Origin: Nitrospiraceae bacterium UBA665
Lineage (GTDB): Bacteria; Nitrospirota; Thermodesulfovibrionia; Thermodesulfovibrionales; Dissulfurispiraceae
DNA: 64,000 bases
Reading direction: 5' to 3'
Assembly (NCBI GenBank): GCA_002299835.1
Contig: DBNT01000114.1
Location: forward strand, 1,123-65,122
Below, one piece after another: positions 17,345 to 64,000 of this stretch. The notes beneath the pieces were generated by a model that saw only the letters and a program-made list of their open reading frames with translations, was not told the origin of the DNA and did no database searches. Position numbers and translations under genes: made by a program. Each line of letters starts with the position of its first letter. Position 1 is the stretch's first letter.

Positions 17345-17602
17345 ATGGACGACCATGTGGAATTTCTTACGACTTTACCTCAGAAAAATAACGGTAAACG
17401 CGATAGAGGTTATTACCGCAACCAAAGACAGAGAATTATTAAAAAACGAATGTATATTGCCAAAAGAAAGCGACTTGATGTCTTCTACCCGGGTGAACTG
17501 GCTAAAGGCTCAATTATCTGCAATGTTTTGCTTGTCTTACCATTGCCATTAGAGGCAAGAAGTCGCCAGAAACAACCTAATAGAGAGGTTATATATGTAT
17601 AA
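17345..17602 (+). CDS. hypothetical basic protein
   Basis: AAGGAGG RBS. Confidence 0.5.
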   Translation: MDDHVEFLTTLPQKNNGKRDRGYYRNQRQRIIKKRMYIAKRKRLDVFYPGELAKGSIICNVLLVLPLPLEARSRQKQPNREVIYV

Positions 17603-20600
17603 AATCAAAAAGAAAAAACCGCAATTCGCAAGTGAAAACCAGCTTGCGATTTTCTTTGGCGGAGGGGTAGAATCAGCTATCGCTTCGGTTTCTATCCCGT
17701 TAGATAATTTTATATCTAATGGGACCATAGACCTGCCGGAGACTGTAGAGCTGCCGACAATCCCGTCCAGAGAAATATTATCAACCGTAGATCTGGTAGT
17801 ATGTAATGATGCGTTTAACAAGCGAAACTACCAGTTCACACCGAAAGACCTGTCGCCGGCGTCTAAACTTAAAGACAGATTTGCGGATAATGTAGCAGCA
17901 ATAAGGCTGCTTAAGGATTTAGAGAAAAGTCCGCGGGAGCTGTCTTTAAAAGACAAGGAAACGCTTAACCATTACACTGGATGGGGAGCTTTGCCGCAGG
18001 CGTTTGATTATTATGGCGATGAGTGGAAATCAGAATACTTTTTGCTGAAAAGTCTTTTCACCGAACAGGAGTATGACAGCGCTAAAGCCAGCACGCCAAA
18101 TGCGCATTACACAGACCCTGAGATTATACAATTTATGTATGATGCCTTGAGGAGAATGGGGTTTGATGGCGGAAGGATTTTAGAGCCATCCTCAGGAGTA
18201 GGATACTTCTTAGGGCTTATGCCCGAAGAGATGTCTGCTAAAAGCCGCATAACCGCAGTTGAATTGGATTCTATCAGCGGCAGCATTGCCAAGATGCTCT
18301 ATCCCGACGCGGATGTGCGGATACAAGGCTTTGAGGAAGCGAGGATGCTGGACGGATTCTTCGACCTTGCCATCAGCAATGTGCCGTTCGGCAATTATAA
18401 GGTCTATGATGCCAATGACACTGATCTTAACAAGCACAAATTTAGTATTCATAATTATTTCTTTGCCAAGGCTATGAAAAAGGTCAGACCGGGCGGTATT
18501 GTGACGTTCATTACATCCAGCTATACAATGGATGCAATAGACACAGAATTTAGAGAGTATATGGCGTCCAAAGCAGACCTGATTGCCTCATTTAGACTGC
18601 CGGAGTGCGCATTTCTGAAAGTGGCGAACACAAAAGTCGTCACAGATATTATCTTTCTAAAAAAGAAAGAGCAGGAAGATGTGTCTGCCGATCCGCCGGT
18701 TTGGGTTCATACCGCGCCGGTTTTTGTTCATACCTCGCCGGTTAAAAGGAAGAGTAGTCCACATCTAAACAAGTATTATCATAAAAACCCAGACGCTGTT
18801 TTTGGCAAGATATCTGTTGAAGTCAGCAGGTACGGAGATAATGAACTGACAGTTAAAAAATCAGGCGACGTAGACATACTGCTGAAAAATGCCCTGTCCA
18901 GCATGCCTCATGATGTCTATAAGCCTGCTGTTGTTAAAACAGAGCGCAGAAATCCCTCTGTCATAGAAGCGCCTGAAGGCATGAAAGACGGACTACATAT
19001 TGTTAAGGACGGCGAGATTTACAGGAGCGAGAACAGTACCCTTACACATATCCCGTTTTCCAACGATAACAAAGCCCGCATGTCTGCGGTTGTCGGAATC
19101 CGTGATGCGGCAAGGCAGCTGCTTGCCCGTCAATTAGAACGAGGAGACGCACAATTGGCGGAAGGCATGGCGACACTGAATGCATTGTATGATGCGTTTG
19201 TAGCCAAATACGGCTATCTGAATGCCAGTCAAAATAGAGCGATATATAAAACAGATGCAGATTATCCGCTCATATTGTCTTTGGAAAATTGGGACGAGGA
19301 TTCCCAAACCGCCAGCAAGTCGGATATATTTTTCAACAGGGTTATTTATACGCATAAAAAAGCGGAACGAGCGGAAAACGTTCAGGAAGCCATGCTTATA
19401 ACCTTATCTGAAACAGGCGGCATGCTTGACTTTCAGAGAATGTCTGATTTGATGGGTTTGCCGGAATCAGCTATTATTGCTTCACTGTCTCAAGCAGGAC
19501 TTATATTCAAGCTGCCGGACTCAGGACAATGGGTTACTTCCGATGAATATTTAAGCGGGTTCGTTAAAGACAAACTTAAAGATGCGGAAATAGCCGCAGA
19601 ATCAGACCCGGCTTTTGCAGCAAATGTTACAGCTTTGTCCGCAGTGATACCACATGATATACCTGCTGAAGAAATTTCGGTGAGGCTTGGGTCCTCATGG
19701 ATTCCCACATATGTGATAAAGGAATTTATAGAATATGTTATCGGCGAAAGCGGAGTGGTTGTAGAGTTCTCGCCTATCAGCGCTACATGGTTTGTCAGTA
19801 CTTATAGATACAGCAGGTACTCCATAGAATCATCTGTAAAAAATACAACTGAGTTCGGAACAGAAATGTTAAGCGCTCTTGAAATCATAGAAAAGACGCT
19901 TAACCATCAAAACATTGTTGTCAAAGACTGCATCGGCGAGGACAAAAACGGCAAGAAAATCTATGTCGTCAACGTCGCAAAGACTGAGGCTGCACGGGAA
20001 AAACAATATTTGATTATCTCAAAATTTGAAGAATGGATTTGGAAGGACCCTGTACGCTGCCTAAATCTCGTTCGCATTTATAACGATACGATGAATACCA
20101 TCAGGAACCGGCAGTATGACGGCAGCAATATCATACTGCATAATGTTAACCCGCAGATTGAACTCCGTCCTCATCAGAAAGATGCTGTGTGGCGGATACT
20201 TCAGTCCCAAACAACGCTGCTTGCGCATGTAGTTGGATCCGGGAAGACTTATATTTGCGCTGCAGCGGCTATGGAGTGCAAACGGCTCGGCATCGCTCAC
20301 AAACCGATGTTAGTCGTGCCTAATCATTTATTAGAGCAATGGGCTGCCGAGATCCTAAGACTCTATCCTGCTGCCAACGTCTTAATAGCGGGCAAAGAAG
20401 ACTTCACTCCACAAAACAGGAAGCTGCTGTTTTCCAAGATCGCCATGTCTAACTGGGATGCTGTGATCGTTGGGCATAGCAGCTTTGAAAAAGTCGCTGT
20501 GTCCAACGACACGCTGAACGCCCTCATTAATAAAGAAATTGCCGACTTGGAATATCGAATCAGAGAAGAAAATGACCGCGGCGGAAGACAGACCCGTGTC

Positions 20601-22592
20601 ATAAAAGACATGGAAAAAAGGAAGAAAAATCTACGGGCCAAACTTTTTATGAAGGCTAATGAGGAGAACAAAGACAATCTCCTTAATTTTGAAGAACTGG
20701 GCGTGGATATGCTTCTTGTAGATGAGTCAGATATGTTTAAAAATCTCGGATTTGCCACTAAGATGCGTGGAGTAGCAGGACTGCCCAATACCGAAAGCAA
20801 TCGCGCATTTGATATGTTTGTCAAAGTTAACCACATGGTTGGATTGGGAAACAAAGTAGTGTTTGCTACAGGCACGCCTATATCCAACACTATGGGCGAA
20901 ATGTTCACGCTGCAGAGATTTTTAGGCATGGGAGCCCTGCTGCACCATTTTGACGCATGGGCAGGGACTTTCGGAGAGATTATATCGTCGTTTGAAATAT
21001 CTCCAGACGGATCAGGTTATCGGGTTATAAATAGGTTTGCGCGGTTCGTTAACCTGCCGGAATTGATGAACATGTTCCGCATGTTTGCAGATATACAGAC
21101 AGCAGATATGCTCGACATCCCAATGCCTAAGTTGAAAGGAGACAGTCCGGATACGGTTGTGGCGCCGCCTACTATAGAGTTGAAAGAATACACTCAACAG
21201 CTTGTAAAACGCGCTGAAGCCATTAGATCAGGCAGAGTAGACCCAAGGACTGACAACATGCTTTGCGTTACCAACGACGGCAGAAAAGCCGCTTTGGATA
21301 TGAGGATTATGGATACTGTGTACTGTGATACGCCAGACAGCAAAGTAAACAATGCCGTGGCTAATATTATAGCCATCTATAAACAAACAATTATATCTAA
21401 AGGGACGCAGCTTGTATTTTGCGATTTAAGCACTCCGCAAAATACGAATTTCAGCGTTTATACGGATATAAAAAACAAACTTGTCATGAGCGGCATACCT
21501 GTTCATGAAATAGCTTTCATCCATAACGCAGACACTGATGCAAAAAAGAAGGTTCTTTTTGATAAGGTGAATGTAGGCAAGGTTCGCATACTAATGGGGT
21601 CAACTACCAAAATGGGCACAGGTATGAATGTGCAGCGCAGATTAGTTGCTCTGCATCACATTGACGCACCGTGGCGCCCACGCGATATTGAGCAGCGTGA
21701 AGGCAGGATTCTACGGCAAGGCAATACCAACGACATCGTAGAAATCTATCGCTATGTGACCGAGGAATCCTTCGATAGCTACATATGGCAGACTCTGGAA
21801 AACAAAGCACGGTTTATAGCTCAGATCATGAACGGAAGCAATATCGCCAGAACTGCCGAAGATGTTGAAGGCGCAGCGCTTACCTATGCTGAAGTAAAAG
21901 CACTTGCATCAGGCAACCCGCTTGTTATGGAAAAGTTCAAAGTGGACAACGAAATTCGCAGGCTGAATATGCTTAAAACGCAGCACAAACGTTCACTGAT
22001 AAGTATGCAATCTGATCTGTCTTTACTGTCCCTTAAGGTTGATACCTATAAGAGCCACATCGAAAGACATGAGGCGGATTTGAAAGTGAGGACAGTGCAA
22101 GAAAAGTTCTCCATCGTCATAGATAATATTGTCTATGATAATAGAGAAAAAGCAGGAGATGCGATATTGTCAAAAACCTCGTCTTTAAGAGGTATGATTG
22201 TCCCTGAAAAGATAGGCTCTTACTCAGGTTTTGATTTGTATATAGCTTCGGATAAAAAGTCTTTCATGAATTCCTTTGGGCAGATTATTGCCAAGGGAAG
22301 TGCCGAACACATAGGCAATATTACGGCTTCGGCATTAGGGACTATAGCGTCTTTGGATTATGCTGTCAGAAATATAGAATCTAAAGTTGCCGGTTATAAA
22401 GCGATGCTTGATTCTGCGTTAAAAAATATCGAGAGTTTAACCGCTGAAATTGAAAAGCCTTTTGCATATGATGATAATCTCAAAACACTTACTGCCAGGA
22501 AAAAGGAAATAGATTCGGCTTTAGACCTCGATAAGCATCAGTCTATAGGATCAGGTGATGTCGCTGAAGGTGAGGTAAAGCTGGCGGCATAA
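17595..22592 (+). CDS. N6-adenine DNA methyltransferase / SNF2-type helicase fusion protein, 1665 aa
   Basis: MTase motif I ILEPSSGVGYF and motif IV ISNVPFG. Helicase motif I GSGKT, motif II LLVDESD, motif III ATGTPISN and motif VI QREGRILRQGN. Confidence 0.85.
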   Translation: MYKIKKKKPQFASENQLAIFFGGGVESAIASVSIPLDNFISNGTIDLPETVELPTIPSREILSTVDLVVCNDAFNKRNYQFTPKDLSPASKLKDRFADNVAAIRLLKDLEKSPRELSLKDKETLNHYTGWGALPQAFDYYGDEWKSEYFLLKSLFTEQEYDSAKASTPNAHYTDPEIIQFMYDALRRMGFDGGRILEPSSGVGYFLGLMPEEMSAKSRITAVELDSISGSIAKMLYPDADVRIQGFEEARMLDGFFDLAISNVPFGNYKVYDANDTDLNKHKFSIHNYFFAKAMKKVRPGGIVTFITSSYTMDAIDTEFREYMASKADLIASFRLPECAFLKVANTKVVTDIIFLKKKEQEDVSADPPVWVHTAPVFVHTSPVKRKSSPHLNKYYHKNPDAVFGKISVEVSRYGDNELTVKKSGDVDILLKNALSSMPHDVYKPAVVKTERRNPSVIEAPEGMKDGLHIVKDGEIYRSENSTLTHIPFSNDNKARMSAVVGIRDAARQLLARQLERGDAQLAEGMATLNALYDAFVAKYGYLNASQNRAIYKTDADYPLILSLENWDEDSQTASKSDIFFNRVIYTHKKAERAENVQEAMLITLSETGGMLDFQRMSDLMGLPESAIIASLSQAGLIFKLPDSGQWVTSDEYLSGFVKDKLKDAEIAAESDPAFAANVTALSAVIPHDIPAEEISVRLGSSWIPTYVIKEFIEYVIGESGVVVEFSPISATWFVSTYRYSRYSIESSVKNTTEFGTEMLSALEIIEKTLNHQNIVVKDCIGEDKNGKKIYVVNVAKTEAAREKQYLIISKFEEWIWKDPVRCLNLVRIYNDTMNTIRNRQYDGSNIILHNVNPQIELRPHQKDAVWRILQSQTTLLAHVVGSGKTYICAAAAMECKRLGIAHKPMLVVPNHLLEQWAAEILRLYPAANVLIAGKEDFTPQNRKLLFSKIAMSNWDAVIVGHSSFEKVAVSNDTLNALINKEIADLEYRIREENDRGGRQTRVIKDMEKRKKNLRAKLFMKANEENKDNLLNFEELGVDMLLVDESDMFKNLGFATKMRGVAGLPNTESNRAFDMFVKVNHMVGLGNKVVFATGTPISNTMGEMFTLQRFLGMGALLHHFDAWAGTFGEIISSFEISPDGSGYRVINRFARFVNLPELMNMFRMFADIQTADMLDIPMPKLKGDSPDTVVAPPTIELKEYTQQLVKRAEAIRSGRVDPRTDNMLCVTNDGRKAALDMRIMDTVYCDTPDSKVNNAVANIIAIYKQTIISKGTQLVFCDLSTPQNTNFSVYTDIKNKLVMSGIPVHEIAFIHNADTDAKKKVLFDKVNVGKVRILMGSTTKMGTGMNVQRRLVALHHIDAPWRPRDIEQREGRILRQGNTNDIVEIYRYVTEESFDSYIWQTLENKARFIAQIMNGSNIARTAEDVEGAALTYAEVKALASGNPLVMEKFKVDNEIRRLNMLKTQHKRSLISMQSDLSLLSLKVDTYKSHIERHEADLKVRTVQEKFSIVIDNIVYDNREKAGDAILSKTSSLRGMIVPEKIGSYSGFDLYIASDKKSFMNSFGQIIAKGSAEHIGNITASALGTIASLDYAVRNIESKVAGYKAMLDSALKNIESLTAEIEKPFAYDDNLKTLTARKKEIDSALDLDKHQSIGSGDVAEGEVKLAA

Positions 22593-25210: not shown

Positions 25211-26526
25211 ATGACTAAAAATAAGCGAGACAAATTGAGGTCGTTTCTCAATCAGATTATAACAAGTAATATCACAAATCGTTTGTTTGTCATGTCGGTT
25301 AAAAATACCGGACTGACAGCAACAATTATTCCAGTTGAAATTGAAGGCAGAGAATACAGCGTTGATATATTAAAACAGTCAATAATGGTAAACAAAGATA
25401 ATCTCCTAGACGATTTAGATCACTACAAAAACGTTAAGCAGATTCTCTCTAAATCGTTTGCCTATTTAAATAAGCAAACCTCTCCTGCGTGGAATACATT
25501 AGAGAGGGCAACAGAGACAGTGAACTTTCTAAATGAAGTATTTACTGACATCAGCAATGACAATCTATATTGCGTAACAGATATAGACGATGATAGCGAT
25601 GTACGCAGCATGGGAATAGAGTCCTTTTGTGAGGCTGCCTCTATATACCTTGATATTCTGCGATGGGACGGCAGTGATGCAAACGGCGCGTTTGCGATTA
25701 GTCAAAAAATAGAAGACAATTTTGCTATAAAATCAACACGAATAAAAAATATCGCAGGCATTACAAGATATATGGACATTAATAAGTCTGTACTGTCAAC
25801 GCTTAATTATGATATTAAAGAAACACTGAATAAAGCAAGTGAATCAGCAATGGATGCTTATGGGCATACGGTGAATCATATAAAACAGCGGATGTCAGTT
25901 GTTAAGTCCAAGTATACGAAAAATAAGCAGGATGTGCCAAGCGAGATAAAAGACAGTTTTGAAATTAACGGATTAATATGCAATTGGAGTCTCTCGCATT
26001 ATAATTACGAACTTAGTGTGTCTTTCTCGTTCAAGGATGATACACTTGACAGAATTATAAAAGAAAGAGGACTAGAAGGCACTCGCAATAAGATACTGTT
26101 TTTTATTGGCACAAAGAGCAAAGCTAAATGTATCAAACTCTTGCTGAAGAGGCCACTATCTTCCTCTTCTATACATGCAGATACAATTTCAGCGCTGTAT
26201 GCGCTATCATTTGCATCAGGTTCAAAAAACGAGTTCGACATAGACGGGATGAAAGATGTGATTGGCAAAATCTTTACCGCTATACGCGAACAAATAGATT
26301 ATCTAGCAGCTATGTTCCTTGATAATCTCGGCGGCAAGAAGATTACACCTATCAAAAAAAATAAAATAAATAATGCCGCGATAACAAGGACAATGGCAAG
26401 TTTTAGTGAGAGAATCATTGCGCATACGGAAATACATGGCGATACCGAAGAGATTTATGGGTCATCATACAGCCATAAGTTTTTGCTGCCCGAAAACTAT
26501 ATCGTTGGCGGCAATAGAATGTATGT
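25211..26526 (+). CDS. hypothetical protein, exon 1; interrupted by an ORF-less group II intron
   Basis: The ORF continues 34 nt into the intron before a stop. GTGCGAC begins at 26527. Confidence 0.6.
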
Positions 26527-27279
26527 GTGCGACTTGTTGCAGTATAACTTATTGAGATAAGGAAAACTGCTACTATCTATGATAGTGAACTTATTCCTTG
26601 ATAGATGGAATGAAAAGGCTCATGCTGCCTTGAAACATCTACATTAATACTCCACTATGCAATTAGACACTCCAGTGAATAATTGTATAAAGCGTGGTGA
26701 AGTCGGAGACAATAACCTAAACTCCAATGGAGCATGGTTCAATTCTTCGGATGTCTAAAAAATAACTACGGTTAGAATGGCAAAATAGCCTGACGAATCT
26801 GCGAATGTAAGGGTCAATATTCAGATACAAGGAAACTTGTATTAATCCTCTGGATTTTTGTAACGGGATTATTAAAAAATACATGCTTATGAACATCCCT
26901 CTATCAGCCGAGATAGAAACATTACAATGGCTCAAAGCAGAAACCTAAAGTTATATGCATAGATAAAGGAATAGGAACAAGGGAAGGTTGCCACAGTTAC
27001 AACCTCTGGAAAGGGACTGGTTAATCGAAAACGGAAATGGTCTTTTAGTCTTAGACTAATTGACAAGTCTGTATAAGATTATTTAGGCAACTGAAAGCGA
27101 TGGCACGACCGATGAAGTCTCTGTAATGGAGATGGAGGAACAGCCATTAGTCATGTCTTACAAAGTTAAGTCCAATAACGATGTAAACATGATGGAACGC
27201 CGTGTGCGGTGAAAGTCGCATGCACGGTGTGAAGGGAGGGAAAAGCCAGAGATTACATCAAAGGCTTACCTATCCTTAT
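26527..27279 (+). mobile_element. ORF-less group II intron, 753 nt
   Basis: 5' GTGCGAC. Canonical 34-nt domain V at 27197..27230 with a GAAA loop, a 2-nt bulge and a CGC triad. DVI-like hairpin with a bulged A. 3' end ..TTAT. Removal joins the flanking ORFs in frame. Confidence 0.7.
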
Positions 27280-27607
27280 CAAAGTATATAAGCCTCCCTT
27301 TTATTGCCAGAAAGTAGGCATTGATATAGAGATACAGGATTTACGCCTGACGGTTAATATATCTACGCTGACTGGCAAATCAAATGCGATTTATGGATAT
27401 GGAAATCAGTCGGAAATTGCAAACGAGGCAATGTCGTTAGTTATCGCAAACGCAGATCAATTTATGAGCTGCCTATTAGCCGAAACTGAACGACATATTG
27501 CAAATAGTCAGTCAAAGATAAGACGAATCGAGGAAATAGTATACAATGATTTTCCCGAAGAATACATGGCTGAATATCTTGCAGCGTCAATAGGAGGAAA
27601 GCAATGA
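27280..27607 (+). CDS. hypothetical protein, exon 2; 108 codons with no start codon of its own
   Basis: The frame is open from inside the intron 3' end to TGA 27605..27607. Absent from the ORF track because it lacks an initiator. Confidence 0.55.
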
Positions 27608-27705
27608 CTCTCATTAAACAAAGGCGATCTATTGTCGAATCTCTTAAGATAATAGCCGAAGCTATCGAAGCCTTGCGAGAAAATAAAAAAGACCTCGAAA
27701 AATAG
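27604..27705 (+). CDS. hypothetical 33-aa protein
   Basis: AGGAGG RBS. ATGA overlap with the exon 2 stop. Confidence 0.35.
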   Translation: MTLIKQRRSIVESLKIIAEAIEALRENKKDLEK

Positions 27706-45802: not shown

Positions 45803-46983
45803 ATGACTGAAGTTGTTGATAACACTACGGGTACAGTGCTTGAGGTGGAGCACGGAGACCCAGAATCCATTGCAAGTATTTCCACCTTATTGGGACCCCA
45901 GTATCACATGCAAAGACTAGGTGTAATTCGCCCCGGTATTATGATACTAAAGCAGGGCTGCTCAGAGGCGGACAAAAAAACCTATGAGATAATGCTTTCA
46001 GGCGGGTTTTCATGGGATGAGACAGACAACAAGCTGGGCAAAGACAATCAGGGGAAATCGAAACTCCGTCCTCAAAACGTTGATTATTTTACAGTTCATA
46101 AAAGAGATTGTCCTAATCCGTCTAATTATGATGCGATAATGAAATACGCGGATGCTGACGGCAAGTTGAGGTCGTTTCCCGTGTGGTTTCCGGTGAACGA
46201 ATGGTGGAACATACTGCCCCATTCTCTTCGCTGTTTCGGGACAGGCGGCATAAAATACAAGAGCTCGTTCAGAGGAAAATACTCTGAAGATGGGCGGCTT
46301 ATTGACATGGCCCGTATCTGCGAATTTCCCATCCCTGCCGAGAAGAATAAAAGGGTTTTCGGCGGACGTGAATGGGACAGCAGACCTTGCAATCCGCCTG
46401 ATTGCTCTGAATACCAAAGCGGTGCATGTAACTTCGGCGGTCTTATTCATTTTTGTATACCGGGGACAAGGGGAATAGGCGTTTGGGTGTTGCCCACGAC
46501 GAGTTGGTACTCGCTGGTAAAAATCAAAAGTACGCTTGAGATGGTTGCCAAACTGACTCGCGGCAAGATAGCTGGACTTTTTAACGGGAAGCCTATCTTT
46601 CGTCTTATGAAGGTGCGGGATACAGTGTCTCGTATAGATAAGGCTACCGGCAATGCTGTGAGGATAGACCAATGGTTAATACATCTTGACGCAGACATTG
46701 ATATGACTGATCTTGCCGCTTATTCAGAAGATTGTCAAGTCAAATTAAGAGCATCTAATGCTATGGATGTTCTAACTGGGTCTGCTATTACAGAGGCTGC
46801 AGCGCCGCCTGAGAATGTGGAGTCTCCATTGTCTGAAGACGATGATGTACAGGCAGACGACAATGTTTTTTCCGAAGAATCTGTTATCGCTGCTCCTGAA
46901 ATCGATGAGCCGCAATCTCTTCAGCCTGCAGTAGTTCACGAGGATAAAGGAAAGCCTGCTACGCAGGGGCAAAAAAATGCAAT
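45803..46983 (+). CDS. hypothetical protein, exon 1; interrupted by a group II intron
   Basis: GAGGAG RBS. The ORF runs 34 nt into the intron. GTGCG at 46984. Confidence 0.65.
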
Positions 46984-49230
46984 GTGCGACAAGAAGTCCC
47001 AATTCTTGAGTGAGTAACAATACTCATAGCCAACCTATCGGCTATTCCCCATATCTACAGTGCGGAATTGGTAACGGTTCTGTGCCAAGCGAAGGTAAAA
47101 GTATCCGAATCTGGTAGCCATAATCAGAAGAGGGCAAGGGGAAGACTGACATGGGTAACATATGTGAACTCTCGATAAACTTCGTGATTTTTGAAAGGCT
47201 GGAAAGTGGCTGATAAGCCTTAACCAAAATGGTAAATGGGTAGTTATGGTGCTATTGCATCATCATAACGATAGGTTAAATTCCCATCGGAGAAGAGAGA
47301 GACCCTAAATCAGTCGGAGCTCAATATTGAGGAACTTGGTAACCCTGATGGACTGTCATCCTTGATGACTAAGTAACAGGCAACTGATTATGAATGTCCA
47401 GCAGGCAGAGGATTGAGGAAAAAGCGAATGCCATTCTGTAATGGAATGGATAGGGTGAATAACCTAACCTGAAAGGGTGCTGACTTCCTTATATGGTAGC
47501 AAGATAAAGTAATTCTTTAGGGGGTTACGAAATGATTGCCAAATTAGAGGCAGAAATGCAAATGAAGCGTCATGTCCTAACTGACTGGAACTCCATTGAT
47601 TGGAAGAAAGCAGAAAGGAAAGTGACAAATCTGAGGAAGAGAATTTATCAAGCAACTGAAAGAGGAGAAGTGAAAGAGGTTAAAAACCTACAGAAACTTC
47701 TACTAAATTCTTTTGCCAACAAAGTGTTAGCGATTAAAAGAGTTACACAAATCAATGATGGAAAGAAAACCACAGGGGTTGACGGTGTGGTAATAGAAGA
47801 CCATACGGATAGAGTGAAGATAGCTAATGAGAAGATTAATCTCAAAGGCTACAAACCTTTACCTGTAAGGAGAGTATATATACCAAAGTCAGATAATTCC
47901 AAAAGACCGCTCGGGATTCCAACCATTAAAGACAGGATAATTCAGGCAATTGTAAAAGAAGCGCTTGAACCAGAATGGGAAGCCAGATTTGAGGCAAACT
48001 CATTTGGCTTTAGACCTGGAAGATGCACTCAAGATGCCATAGAAGAAATACACGCTGCGTTAAATAATAGTGCAGTGGGTAGAAACGAGTGGATATTGGA
48101 TGCAGACATCAAAAAGGCTTTTGACACAATTAACCATGAGTTTATCCTAAACCAAATTTGTAACTTCCCAATGAAAGGATTAATTTCAAAATGGCTAAAA
48201 GCAGGGTATCTAGAAACAGGGATAATGCATGAAACACACAATGGAACTCCACAAGGCGGTGTGATAAGTCCCTTATTAGCAAACATCGCTTTAGACGGAC
48301 TACAAAATCAACTTGGAAAAGGATACAGATATGCCCGATATGCTGATGACTTCGTCATCATGGCAAAATCAAAGCAAGCCATTGAAGATATTAAACCAAA
48401 AGTAGAGGAGTGGCTGCAAGCAAGAGGATTAACGCTGAATAATGAGAAGACTAAAATTATACACAGAGATGAGGGATTCAAGTTTCTGGGATTTCATATC
48501 AAAATGTATAACAAAAAACTCATTATAAAGCCTCAAAAGGAAAAGGTTGAAGGTTTATTAGACAAAATTAGGAACTGGTTAGACGACAATAAACAAATAG
48601 AAGCGGAAAAAGTCTCTGAACACCTTAACCCAATCATTAGAGGATGGGCTAACTACTATCGCTTTGTATGTAGTAAAGAAACATTTTCAAAAATCCATTG
48701 GAACATTGGATGGAAGTTATGGAAATGGGCTAAAAGAAGACATCCAAACAAAACCGTATTTTGGGTTCTCAGTAAGTATTATGAGAAAAACAAATATGGC
48801 AAGTTTGATGTCTTTAATGGACTATATAGGATTAATAAAACGCCTATAATCCGCTACATCAAAGTGAAAGGAAAAGCCAGTCCTGACGACCCAAGTTTGA
48901 AAGAATATTGGGAAGACAGGAAAAACAGAATCAGCAAAACCTATTATGCAAAAGGTAGTAAACTCTACAAAGTTGCGGAAGAACAAGAATGGAAGTGTAA
49001 TTCTTGCAGAGCAATGCTAATGAATGGTGAAAAGATACATATACATCATAAAGATGACAATCATCAGAATGATGATATATCAAATCTGGAAATCATACAT
49101 GAGCATTGTCATCATCAAAAACACTCAAAGGCAAGGAAAGTTGCGAAAGCTGCTTGAGCCGTGTGAAGGGAAACTTTCACGCACGGTTCTTAGGGGAGGG
49201 GATGACAGCGATGTTGTCTCCTTACCCGAC
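46984..49230 (+). mobile_element. complete group II intron with an RT/maturase/HNH ORF
   Basis: 5' GTGCGAC. Domain V GAGCCGTGTGAAGGGAAACTTTCACGCACGGTTC at 49156..49189. DVI with a bulged A. The 3' end ..CCCGAC is shared with the relic copy and diverges immediately after. Confidence 0.85.
47532..49157 (+). CDS. group II intron reverse transcriptase/maturase with a C-terminal HNH endonuclease domain
   Basis: RT motifs including YARYADDFVIM. Maturase X region. HIHHKDDNHQNDDISNLEIIHEHCH HNH motif. Confidence 0.9.
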   Translation: MIAKLEAEMQMKRHVLTDWNSIDWKKAERKVTNLRKRIYQATERGEVKEVKNLQKLLLNSFANKVLAIKRVTQINDGKKTTGVDGVVIEDHTDRVKIANEKINLKGYKPLPVRRVYIPKSDNSKRPLGIPTIKDRIIQAIVKEALEPEWEARFEANSFGFRPGRCTQDAIEEIHAALNNSAVGRNEWILDADIKKAFDTINHEFILNQICNFPMKGLISKWLKAGYLETGIMHETHNGTPQGGVISPLLANIALDGLQNQLGKGYRYARYADDFVIMAKSKQAIEDIKPKVEEWLQARGLTLNNEKTKIIHRDEGFKFLGFHIKMYNKKLIIKPQKEKVEGLLDKIRNWLDDNKQIEAEKVSEHLNPIIRGWANYYRFVCSKETFSKIHWNIGWKLWKWAKRRHPNKTVFWVLSKYYEKNKYGKFDVFNGLYRINKTPIIRYIKVKGKASPDDPSLKEYWEDRKNRISKTYYAKGSKLYKVAEEQEWKCNSCRAMLMNGEKIHIHHKDDNHQNDDISNLEIIHEHCHHQKHSKARKVAKAA

Positions 49231-53980: not shown

Positions 53981-53990
53981 TAAAACACTA

Positions 53991-54021
53991 AAGCACAGGC
54001 TATGCGCCTGTGCTTTTTTTT
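53991..54021 (+). terminator. rho-independent terminator
   Basis: AAGCACAGGC-tatgc-GCCTGTGCTT followed by T8. Confidence 0.75.
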
Positions 54022-54029
54022 AAAAAAAG

Positions 54030-54680
54030 ACGTCCGTGCCAAGCGATGATAAATGTAACAAATCTGAGAGCCATAACTCGGAAGAGTGCTATGGGAAGAC
54101 TGACATGGGCAACAAATGTGAACTCTCGATAAACTTCGTTAACCCAGAAAGGCTAAAATGGCTGATAAGCCTTAACCAAAAATGGTAAGTGGGTAGTTAT
54201 AACGCTTATATTTCGTTATAACGATAGGTTACATCCCCATCCACTCCATTACAGAATGGCATTCGCTTTTTCCTCAATCCTCTGCTTGCTGGACTTTTGT
54301 AGTCAGTTGCCTGCTATTTAGTCATCACATAAGTATGACAGTTCATTAGGTTTATCATGTTCTTTAATGTTGAGATGCGACTGATTTAGGGTCTCTCTAT
54401 TCTCCGATAGGGTGAATGCCTAATCCGAAAGGATGCTGACTTCCTCGTGGTAACACGATAAAGTAATTTATCAGGAGATAGTGAAATGAACGCTGGATTG
54501 AAGGCAGAAATGTCAAAAAGGTTTCATATTCTTTCTGATTGGAGATCCATTGATTGGAAGAAAATCGAAAGAAGAGTGAAAAACCTGAGAAAGAGAAAGC
54601 TGCTTGAGCCGTATGAAGGGAAACTTTCACGTACGGTTCTTAGGGGAGGGGATGACAGTGATGTTATCTCCTTACCCGAC
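54030..54680 (+). pseudogene. 5'-truncated, RT-ORF-deleted group II intron relic with an internal ~170-bp inversion
   Basis: Aligns with 47078..49230 except for a clean deletion of the RT ORF. Segment 54242..54415 is the reverse complement of 47288..47449. Domain V is intact at 54606..54639. Confidence 0.8.
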
Positions 54681-63172: not shown

Positions 63173-64000
63173 GTTTCAATCCTTGTTTTATTGGAAGTAG
63201 CTTTCAGACAGAAAGAACATGAAAAAGGCAGAAATGATAACAAAATGTTTCAATCCTTGTTTTATTGGAAGTAGCTTTCAGACCTTTGCCTTGTAATCGC
63301 CTGCGCTTGTCCTAACGTGATGTTTCAATCCTTGTTTTATTGGAAGTAGCTTTCAGACCGAAAGAAATGCAGAAAATGGAAAAAGATATAGTTCAGTTTC
63401 AATCCTTGTTTTATTGGAAGTAGCTTTCAGACCTGCAAGGTTAAACATTTTAGATAGCATTCTGATAGTGTTTCAATCCTTGTTTTATTGGAAGTAGCTT
63501 TCAGACTCTCCTTTTTCTCAGCGATGTGATCGGTATATCTGGTTTCAATCCTTGTTTTATTGGAAGTAGCTTTCAGACAAAATAGCCAAAAGTCCGGAAA
63601 GTTTCGGTTTTACTCGTTTCAATCCTTGTTTTATTGGAAGTAGCTTTCAGACAAAAAGACGCAGTAGGACATATCCTTATCTCGAAAGAGTTTCAATCCT
63701 TGTTTTATTGGAAGTAGCTTTCAGACCTCTAACAAAATTCGGCTTGGTGCGGACTTAGATATGTTTCAATCCTTGTTTTATTGGAAGTAGCTTTCAGACG
63801 TCACGATAGTAGCAATCGTCTATGGCGAGATATCGTAAGTTTCAATCCTTGTTTTATTGGAAGTAGCTTTCAGACGAGACAAGATACTCCAAGCCAGTGA
63901 GACAGTCGATATGTTTCAATCCTTGTTTTATTGGAAGTAGCTTTCAGACAACAAGATAACAGCTATACTCAAGCACATGATCAGGTTTCAATCCTTGTTT
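63173..64000. CRISPR. CRISPR array: 11 full repeats plus 1 truncated by the window edge, 37-nt repeats, 11 spacers of 35-39 nt
   Basis: Invariant repeat GTTTCAATCCTTGTTTTATTGGAAGTAGCTTTCAGAC at 63173, 63247, 63322, 63396, 63470, 63542, 63616, 63690, 63763, 63839, 63913 and 63985. All spacers are unique. Confidence 0.95.

Follow-up and report, generated by a model that had tools for sequence, protein, structure and literature searches.

The window analysed here, a 64,000-nucleotide (nt) stretch of contig DBNT01000114.1 of Nitrospiraceae bacterium UBA665, carries on its plus strand, at positions 26527-27279, a complete group II intron of 753 nt that is without a protein gene of its own. It is very probably an intact intron of class B (IIB-like) that lacks an open reading frame (ORF), having derived from the introns of Rfam family RF02004 that encode a reverse transcriptase (RT) by loss of the ORF in domain IV, and it splits an uncharacterised gene for a protein of 547 amino acids (aa) on what appears to be a large plasmid-like element. 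Splicing has probably been retained, because the catalytic elements are intact, the pairing of exon-binding site 1 (EBS1) with intron-binding site 1 (IBS1) is 6 bp long and the second exon is conserved and in frame. The ORF-less group II intron is an already described kind to which the present intron adds a well-supported member, the features particular to it being a mismatch in class with an RT-encoding intron that resides on the same element, and exon-binding sites whose match to an intron-less allele is closer than that to the intron's own flanks. An initial annotation of the window, made from the letters and a list of their ORFs, had implied a greater novelty than this, although ORF-less class B introns have already been described, as have ORF-less introns on phages and mobile elements (PMC12350094).

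Detection and anatomy of the intron

With the covariance models of Rfam run over the whole window, the core of domain I (D1) matches RF02004 (group-II-D1D4-5) at 26585-26761 with 101.3 bits (E 8e-21), and domains V and VI (DV and DVI) match RF00029 at 27195-27279 with 61.9 bits (E 9e-10), RF00029 having a gathering score of 40 and both matches passing the gathering thresholds. The fold of the 753-nt intron is also more stable than that of shuffled sequences, with a z-score of the minimum free energy (MFE) of -6.2, and the Rfam scores and the fold stability are both far above chance. When D1 is aligned with 13 relatives (14 sequences) there are 79 predicted pairs, 60 of which show compensatory changes.

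The intron begins with GUGCGAC at 26527 (GUGCG at 26527-26531) and ends with ..UUAU at 27279, in agreement with the GUGYG and AY termini of group II introns. The catalytic elements are all intact, these being GUGCG, J2/3, the triad, bulge and GAAA loop of DV, the bulged A of DVI and the 3' AU. The candidate branch point, A27272, is unpaired in both the MFE fold and the Rfam alignment and lies 7 nt before the 3' end, in keeping with the 7-8 nt expected of group II introns. The initial annotation had picked out the GTGCGAC start at 26527, the 34-nt DV with a CGC triad at 27197-27230, a DVI-like hairpin with a bulged A and the ..TTAT end at 27279, all of which are confirmed in the sequence, and its proposal of a group II intron with exactly these boundaries is upheld by the Rfam matches, with the region accepted by the covariance models (RF02004 and RF00029) that it had suggested as a check, and by homologs of the interrupted protein that cross the junction free of gaps.

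The claim that the intron is ORF-less also stands. There is no ORF of 50 aa or more on its plus strand, and tblastn with twelve RTs of relatives and with the window's own RT found no RT remnant within it. Domain IV, in which a mobile retroelement has its RT/maturase ORF, is here a hairpin of 42 nt. The positions of the exons, the domains and the sites of exon recognition are collected in Table 1.

Table 1. Features of the interrupted gene and of the intron, in window coordinates (EBS, exon-binding site; IBS, intron-binding site)
Feature	Position	Strand	Basis
Exon 1, 438 codons + 2 nt (1316 nt)	25211-26526	+	Reading frame
IBS2 GAAU, pairs with EBS2 AUUC, only 4 bp	26517-26520	+	Assigned from family context, GGGUCUAAA-EBS2
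IBS1 GUAUGU, last six nt of exon 1	26521-26526	+	EBS1 pairing
ORF-less intron, very probably class B, 753 nt, starts GUGCGAC, ends UUAU	26527-27279	+	Rfam, fold, family alignment
Double-stem insertion near 5' end, a class B mark; hairpins 26539-26570 and 26572-26586	26539-26586	+	Fold, alignment with relatives; defined in PMC4024640
Conserved D1 core, including 4-nt bulge GAAA(C) in lambda/epsilon' region 26628-26641	26585-26761	+	RF02004 101.3 bits, covariation
EBS2 AUUC	26819-26822	+	Family context
EBS1 ACAUGC, terminal loop of hairpin GGGAU...AUCCC	26881-26886	+	Loop covaries with exon in at least 9 relatives; stem covaries
Short stem 3' of EBS1/alpha' hairpin, in most class B introns	26899-26917	+	Fold, covariation; PMC4024640
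EBS3, A in GGCUCA-A-AGC	26935	+	Column complementary to IBS3 in 13/15 introns
Domain II	26986-27092	+	MFE fold and comparison with ORF-less relatives
J2/3 linker GAAAG, also in ORF-less relative L018	27093-27097	+	Comparison with ORF-less relatives
Domain III, retains family motifs GUAAUGG...GGAGNAACAGCC	27099-27148	+	Comparison with relatives
Domain IV, reduced to 42-nt hairpin; the 610-645-aa RT ORF of relatives sits here	27151-27192	+	Comparison with relatives
Domain V, 34 nt: 9-bp lower helix, AU bulge, 5-bp upper helix, GAAA loop, CGC triad	27197-27230	+	RF00029; helix geometry checked by hand
Domain VI, candidate branch point A27272	27232-27277	+	Rfam alignment, MFE fold
Exon 2, C + 108 codons + stop codon	27280-27607	+	Reading frame, homolog alignment

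The interrupted gene and its spliced product

If left unspliced, the frame from 25211 runs 11 codons into the intron and ends at the TAA at 26558-26560, giving a protein of 449 aa. Joining 26526 to 27280 instead completes a Val codon (GT + C27280), between the second and third bases of which the intron sits, and the frame is then open to the TGA at 27605-27607, giving the product of 547 aa. The initial annotation had proposed just this split gene and this in-frame join, and both are borne out. The predicted spliced junction reads ...AATGTATGT followed directly by CAAAGTATAT..., with the protein running ...GGNRMYV-KVYKPPF... across it.

Support for this join comes from homologs that are not interrupted. 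P0002, a homolog of 561 aa, has 50% identity to the spliced product at 99% coverage and no gap at the junction, where DGNRMHVVVGK aligns with the GGNRMYV/KVYK of the host protein. An exhaustive HMMER search gave two further uninterrupted homologs across the junction (P0003 and P0004), and the three, at 30-54% identity, align through it without an insertion or deletion. The homologs are collinear with the spliced product and do not end where the unspliced ORF ends, a comparison that the initial annotation had put forward as a check on the split. The part of the protein that would be restored by splicing is also the most conserved, as 16 of the 17 invariant columns lie in exon 2 in a five-row alignment (A1) that includes the window's own 58-aa exon-2 fragment (P0005).

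According to the initial annotation ORF callers cannot see the downstream exon, and the public record is in line with this. Only the 449-aa unspliced ORF is called in GCA_027321165.1 (DAHVJY010000054.1, 173,752 bp), in which the next gene after it is a separate 33-aa ORF at 27604-27705, and a second gene caller gave just the 58-aa piece of exon 2 (P0005). The present result is therefore an annotation correction, a 547-aa gene being recorded publicly as 449 aa with its most conserved C-terminal part absent. The same error is probably common, since about one fifth of the sampled family is ORF-less and such members are invisible to intron searches based on the RT.

The start codon of the 33-aa ORF (27604-27705, plus strand) overlaps the stop codon of the host gene (ATGA), an arrangement that suggests a translational coupling which would operate only on the spliced mRNA. 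The host protein belongs to no Pfam or PHROGs family and has no match in phage genomes by tblastn. No further homologs of the gene were found in IMG/VR or in JGI metagenome contigs, the known ones being P0002, P0003 and P0004 only, and an AlphaFold model, for which the alignment had four sequences, reached a predicted local distance difference test (pLDDT) score of 45, too poor for a fold search. At position 26384, in codon 392 of exon 1, the A of the window is replaced by a G in the two public copies, one the NCBI contig and the other Logan SRR28842985, a Thr/Ala difference; this is the sole difference in 7.3 kb, the intron being identical in all three copies.

Class assignment and exon recognition

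The initial annotation had taken the CGC triad of DV as a likeness to the IIC intron of Oceanobacillus, a comparison that does not hold, as the marks of class B are present and those of IIC are absent. CGC instead of AGC is the DV triad signature of the bacterial class B (IIB-like) introns, a double-stem insertion near the 5' end is a further feature of the class, and most of its members have a short stem 3' of alpha' (PMC4024640); a beta-beta' interaction is missing from most of them. Both of the 5' hairpins of the present intron, and the hairpin at 26899-26917, align with covarying stems in relatives (the 3' stem at columns 447-450/474-477). The lambda/epsilon' region, CCUU-GAAA-CAUCUA at 26628-26641, has a 4-nt bulge, whose reading as AAAC depends on a 1-nt register; a 4-nt bulge in this region with the consensus AARC is the IIB criterion of Merk et al. 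(PMC12350094). The CGC triad itself is found in all 16 aligned DV/DVI relatives and in 76 of the 77 scanned loci, these being the loci with both the D1 core and DV captured. Judged by these features, the triad is a class B trait here and not a link to IIC.

That the intron is nevertheless of class IIC (class C), as the triad and the Oceanobacillus comparison suggested, has next to no likelihood. The CGC triad is common to IIC introns, for which either AGC or CGC is given (PMC12350094), and the intron O.i.I1 (IIC) of Oceanobacillus iheyensis resembles the present one in its CGC triad and in the general geometry of DV. The introns of the class of O.i.I1 are, however, ribozymes of ~400 nt without EBS2 that lie just after a terminator or attC hairpin, to which they bind instead of an IBS2, and their intron-encoded proteins (IEPs) are without an endonuclease (En) domain. 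The present intron breaks up a Val codon in an ORF of 547 aa, at a site that uninterrupted homologs cross, and does not lie after a terminator or attC hairpin; it has an EBS2 position, and across the family this covaries; the ribozyme has 753 nt, with full domains II to IV and the class B double-stem insertion; and its D1 falls in RF02004, a family in which the IEPs of RT-bearing members have an HNH domain, whereas class C IEPs are without an En domain (PMC4424553). On feature tests of this kind the IIC reading is already refuted.

The relatives of the intron are numerous. A pattern search for the D1 core gave 24 loci in IMG/VR and at least 119 in the species genomes of GTDB. The viral (IMG/VR) loci are all RF02004 and most of them are 2.5-2.75 kb in length with a 610-645-aa RT/X/HNH protein in domain IV, and these IEPs are not close to any RT in PDB. 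About 16 of the 77 loci, roughly one fifth, have an ORF-less size, and two ORF-less relatives measure 838 nt (L013) and 728 nt (L018). The genome matches of the family are almost all in Bacillota and the plasmid matches (782 records) are mainly in Bacillus, Enterococcus and Clostridium, in agreement with the report that class B is confined to Firmicutes (PMC4424553).

Three of the ORF-less relatives, of ~835 nt, are near-identical to one another: L013 (13642-12805, minus strand) on an IMG/VR contig, L148 (1344-2178) on the B. mycoides plasmid p37, and L101 in the genome of Bacillus pfraonensis. L013 and L148 retain in domain IV the UUCGAGUAAGA-like motif that is also present in L020, an RT-bearing cousin. 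At its 5' end L013 reads GCGCG rather than GUGCG, and its EBS3 column does not match the +1 base.

Two sets of known class B introns are the closest in kind. C.te.I1 is an ORF-less class B intron that self-splices robustly in vitro (PMC4024640) and it is similar to the present intron in being ORF-less, in its CGC triad, 5' double-stem insertion and IIB-like fold, perhaps in a Firmicute-type setting, and in joining two protein-coding exons in frame. C.te.I1 differs in splicing 8 nt upstream of GUGYG and in having four alternative DV/DVI repeats that lead to several fusion proteins, whereas here there is a single DV/DVI and the splice sites are canonical; self-splicing is demonstrated for C.te.I1 and predicted here. 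In the B. cereus group, the great majority of whose group II introns were assigned to the B class, the ORF-less introns are B.th.I2 (pAW63) and ORF-less copies of B.c.I7 (pE33L466) and B.c.I13 (Tourasse & Kolsto 2008, PMC2504315). These are ORF-less derivatives of RT-bearing introns, as the present intron very probably is, and sit on large Firmicute plasmids, and the short relative L148 on plasmid p37 is similar, but a full-length copy closely related to them is usually present as well, whereas here there is no related RT in the 84 kb made up of the window and 10 kb on each side. The similarity to the plasmid relatives is confined to the conserved cores, at about 67-75% over parts of the intron.

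Recognition of the exons can be followed in the same family. EBS1 (ACAUGC) pairs with GUAUGU over 6 bp, five of them Watson-Crick pairs and one a G.U pair. In at least nine relatives, whose exons are unrelated, the loop hexamer in GUAARAAU-[N6]-UAUGAAA is the exact complement of the intron's own last six exon bases, and because the EBS1 loop of the family matches its own exon end in this way the 5' splice site is fixed independently of the protein alignment. EBS2 adjoins the conserved GGGUCUAAA motif, on its 3' side, across the family, and the EBS2 position covaries within it. In 13 of 15 introns the base at column x of AGGCUYA-x-AGC complements the first base of the 3' exon, and this column is therefore taken to be EBS3; in the present intron this is A26935, which faces C27280 in an A.C mismatch. 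Two other placements were rejected. The alternative candidates for EBS1 (intron nt 427-433, and the matches inside DV) do not lie in the conserved EBS1 loop of the family, where only nt 355-360 lie, and a 3' splice site placed 1 nt away, which would restore EBS3 pairing, breaks the reading frame.

The pairing is better at a site that has no intron. In L001, the closest intron-less homolog, the site GAATGCATGT followed by T is a perfect Watson-Crick match to EBS2, EBS1 and EBS3, whereas the intron's own site has one G.U pair and an A.C mismatch with EBS1 and EBS3. A T stands at +1 in all three intron-less homologs, and would pair with the A of EBS3. This may be explained by an old homing event, after which the exons would have drifted by one His-to-Tyr change and one synonymous change. 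As the exon-binding sites fit the intron-less allele better than their own flanks, the insertion is probably an old and immobilised one, and the intron would then be a case of a splicing-only group II intron on a mobile replicon. Searching IMG/VR and JGI metagenome contigs with an exact 25-mer from domain III gave no second copy of the intron.

It could be argued from the weakened exon pairing (a 4-bp EBS2 and an A.C at EBS3), and from there being no maturase on hand, that the intron is a dead relic which does not splice, so that the gene is a split pseudogene or yields the 449-aa truncated product only. This is unlikely, as exon 2 retains a 108-codon open frame from the junction together with most of the invariant columns of the protein alignment, every catalytic motif is intact and agrees with the family consensus, and EBS1 and IBS1 still pair over 6 bp.

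Splicing, maturases and the surrounding element

If the intron is active, EBS1 (ACAUGC) and EBS2 (AUUC) of domain I would hold the last ten bases of exon 1 (GAAU-GUAUGU) in the pre-mRNA, and the 2'-OH of the bulged A of domain VI (27272) would attack the 5' splice site. The freed 3'-OH of exon 1 would then attack after U27279, releasing the intron as a lariat and leaving a ligated mRNA that encodes ...GGNRMYV-KVYKPPF.... Without an RT or maturase of its own the intron would be a splicing-only passenger, unable to home by itself, and its splicing would be either protein-independent, as that of C.te.I1 is in vitro, or aided by a class B maturase from another locus of the cell. The initial annotation had stated that the intron must self-splice or borrow a maturase in trans, which is a fair statement of the alternatives; the choice between them is the standard question for bacterial ORF-less introns and the present intron raises no new one. 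The evidence leans slightly towards a ribozyme that is maturase-independent or host-assisted.

The splicing might otherwise depend on a cognate class B RT/maturase acting in trans, the product of a full-length class B intron on another part of the element or on the chromosome, and this protein may even mobilise the intron. Such dependence has a fair but less than even chance of being true. In its favour, it is usual for ORF-less introns of bacteria, which are nearly always found in genomes with related IEP-encoding introns (PMC4424553, PMC2504315; LPJP1 in PMC12350094), and the family is abundant in Bacillota. On the other side, tblastn found no class B RT in the window and 10 kb on each side (84 kb), the flanks containing no further RT or DV; the lack of a second copy in IMG/VR or JGI metagenome contigs gives no sign of recent mobility, and the drift of the exon-binding sites from their own flanks suggests a long immobility.

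The sole RT in these 84 kb is the product of 47532-49157, which has RVT_1 and GIIM domains; no other protein of the window has a maturase domain. Over its full length this RT matches the T.el4h maturase (PDB 6ME0, E 6e-125), and the RT-encoding intron in which it lies is considered chloroplast-like because its RT is T.el4h-like. Lying on the same replicon, this chloroplast-like RT/maturase could be imagined to splice the class B intron across classes, but such help is very improbable. It has only ~30% identity to the RTs of the intron's relatives, and the two introns differ in D1 family (RF02012 and RF02004) and in DV triad (AGC and CGC). A maturase evolves together with the introns of its own lineage and is specific for them. 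Should it occur, help from the co-resident chloroplast-like RT would show a maturase of one class serving an intron of another in nature. The wider proposition, that the class B ribozyme sits in an expressed gene on an element without a cognate maturase and is spliced in vivo alone or via the co-resident chloroplast-like RT/maturase, is unlikely.

Several points weigh against the preferred reading of an intact class B intron that still splices. The 4-bp EBS2-IBS2 pairing and the A.C mismatch of EBS3-IBS3 make exon binding weaker than in relatives, and a class B maturase may well exist in the ~90 kb of contig and in the genome beyond the 84 kb examined, in which case dependence on a maturase in trans would be favoured. 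The segment CGAUGUAAACA of domain IV weakly resembles the family motif UUCGAGUAAGA, such a motif lying upstream of the RT start in RT-bearing relatives and also occurring in the ORF-less L013, and may be a remnant of a maturase-binding site. Class B membership is drawn from RNA features described in the literature and not from a curated reference set, and the case for splicing itself is one of sequence, being a junction that keeps the frame and with which three uninterrupted homologs are collinear.

The closest parallel for an ORF-less intron beside an RT-encoding one comes from phages. Merk, Jones & Eddy (2025) described group II introns on phages and on scaffolds resembling integrative and conjugative elements (ICEs), 6 of 20 being ORF-less, with the jumbophage LPJP1 having one RT intron and three ORF-less introns (PMC12350094). 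As here, these are mobile replicons with one RT-encoding intron and one or more ORF-less introns inside genes, and the logic of detection is common to both studies (Rfam D1-D4 and DV/DVI, intron-less homologs). The DV/DVI of the present intron is 80-90% identical to those of Merk et al., the best match, at 90.5%, being MT836027, a scaffold that they set aside as an ICE (PMC12350094). The ORF-less introns of LPJP1 are structurally related to its RT intron, whereas here the two are of different classes, B and chloroplast-like; the remark in the initial annotation that the intron has nothing in common with the RT intron beyond the first 7 nt is upheld as regards class (RF02004/CGC against RF02012/AGC). 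Unlike the phage LPJP1, the present element is plasmid-like (a ParM-like actin-like protein (ALP), a Replic_Relax protein and a resolvase) and is not proven to be a phage.

The second, RT-encoding group II intron lies at 46983-49230 (plus strand), with GTGCGAC at 46983, an RF02012 D1 at 47026-47135, an RT/X/HNH ORF at 47532-49157 and a DV/DVI at 49154-49230 with an AGC triad. It lies in a Gp3-like (PF18897) gene, whose start is at 45803, five codons short of the end of that gene. A degenerate copy of this RT intron is found at 54033-54680 (plus strand), in the spacer between a terminator-like hairpin (53990-54015) and a primase gene. Its first ~100 nt are absent and its RT ORF is deleted save for ~37 codons (54486-54596, 65% identical), yet DV/DVI is intact (69 bits); a 185-nt segment of it, 54225-54411, runs in the opposite direction to its counterpart in the full copy, 47283-47466, with 85% identity between them in reverse orientation.

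The window has genes of replication and defence, among them those for a sigma factor, a DarB-like protein of 1665 aa, a helicase, a DnaN-like clamp, ribonucleotide reductase, SbcCD-like proteins, a primase, methyltransferases and transposases, and no phage structural genes were found in the window. There is a resolvase inside it, and the upstream flank (L151 1-1761, which is 91,636-93,396 of DAHVJY010000054.1) encodes a ParM-like actin (ALP_N/MreB-like_C) and a Replic_Relax protein. These plasmid-type maintenance genes, and the absence of phage structural genes in the window, make a large plasmid a likelier identity for the replicon than a phage. Megablast of 1-25000 against phages and of 28001-53000 against plasmids, ~50 kb of the window in all, gave no related replicon. 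The DarB-like methylase/helicase (17595-22592, plus strand; PHROG 10089, score 1642) is uninterrupted here; a DarB-like gene of a Streptococcus phage has a group IIA intron (Merk et al., PMC12350094).

Towards the end of the window, at 63173-63949 on the minus strand, is a CRISPR array of 11 repeats (RF01320, CRISPR-DR7). It is followed, beyond the window (L152 13433-20690), by cas4, cas2, cas1, cas6b, csc1, csc2 and a gene for a large HD-domain protein, a set that fits a type I-D-like system on the element.

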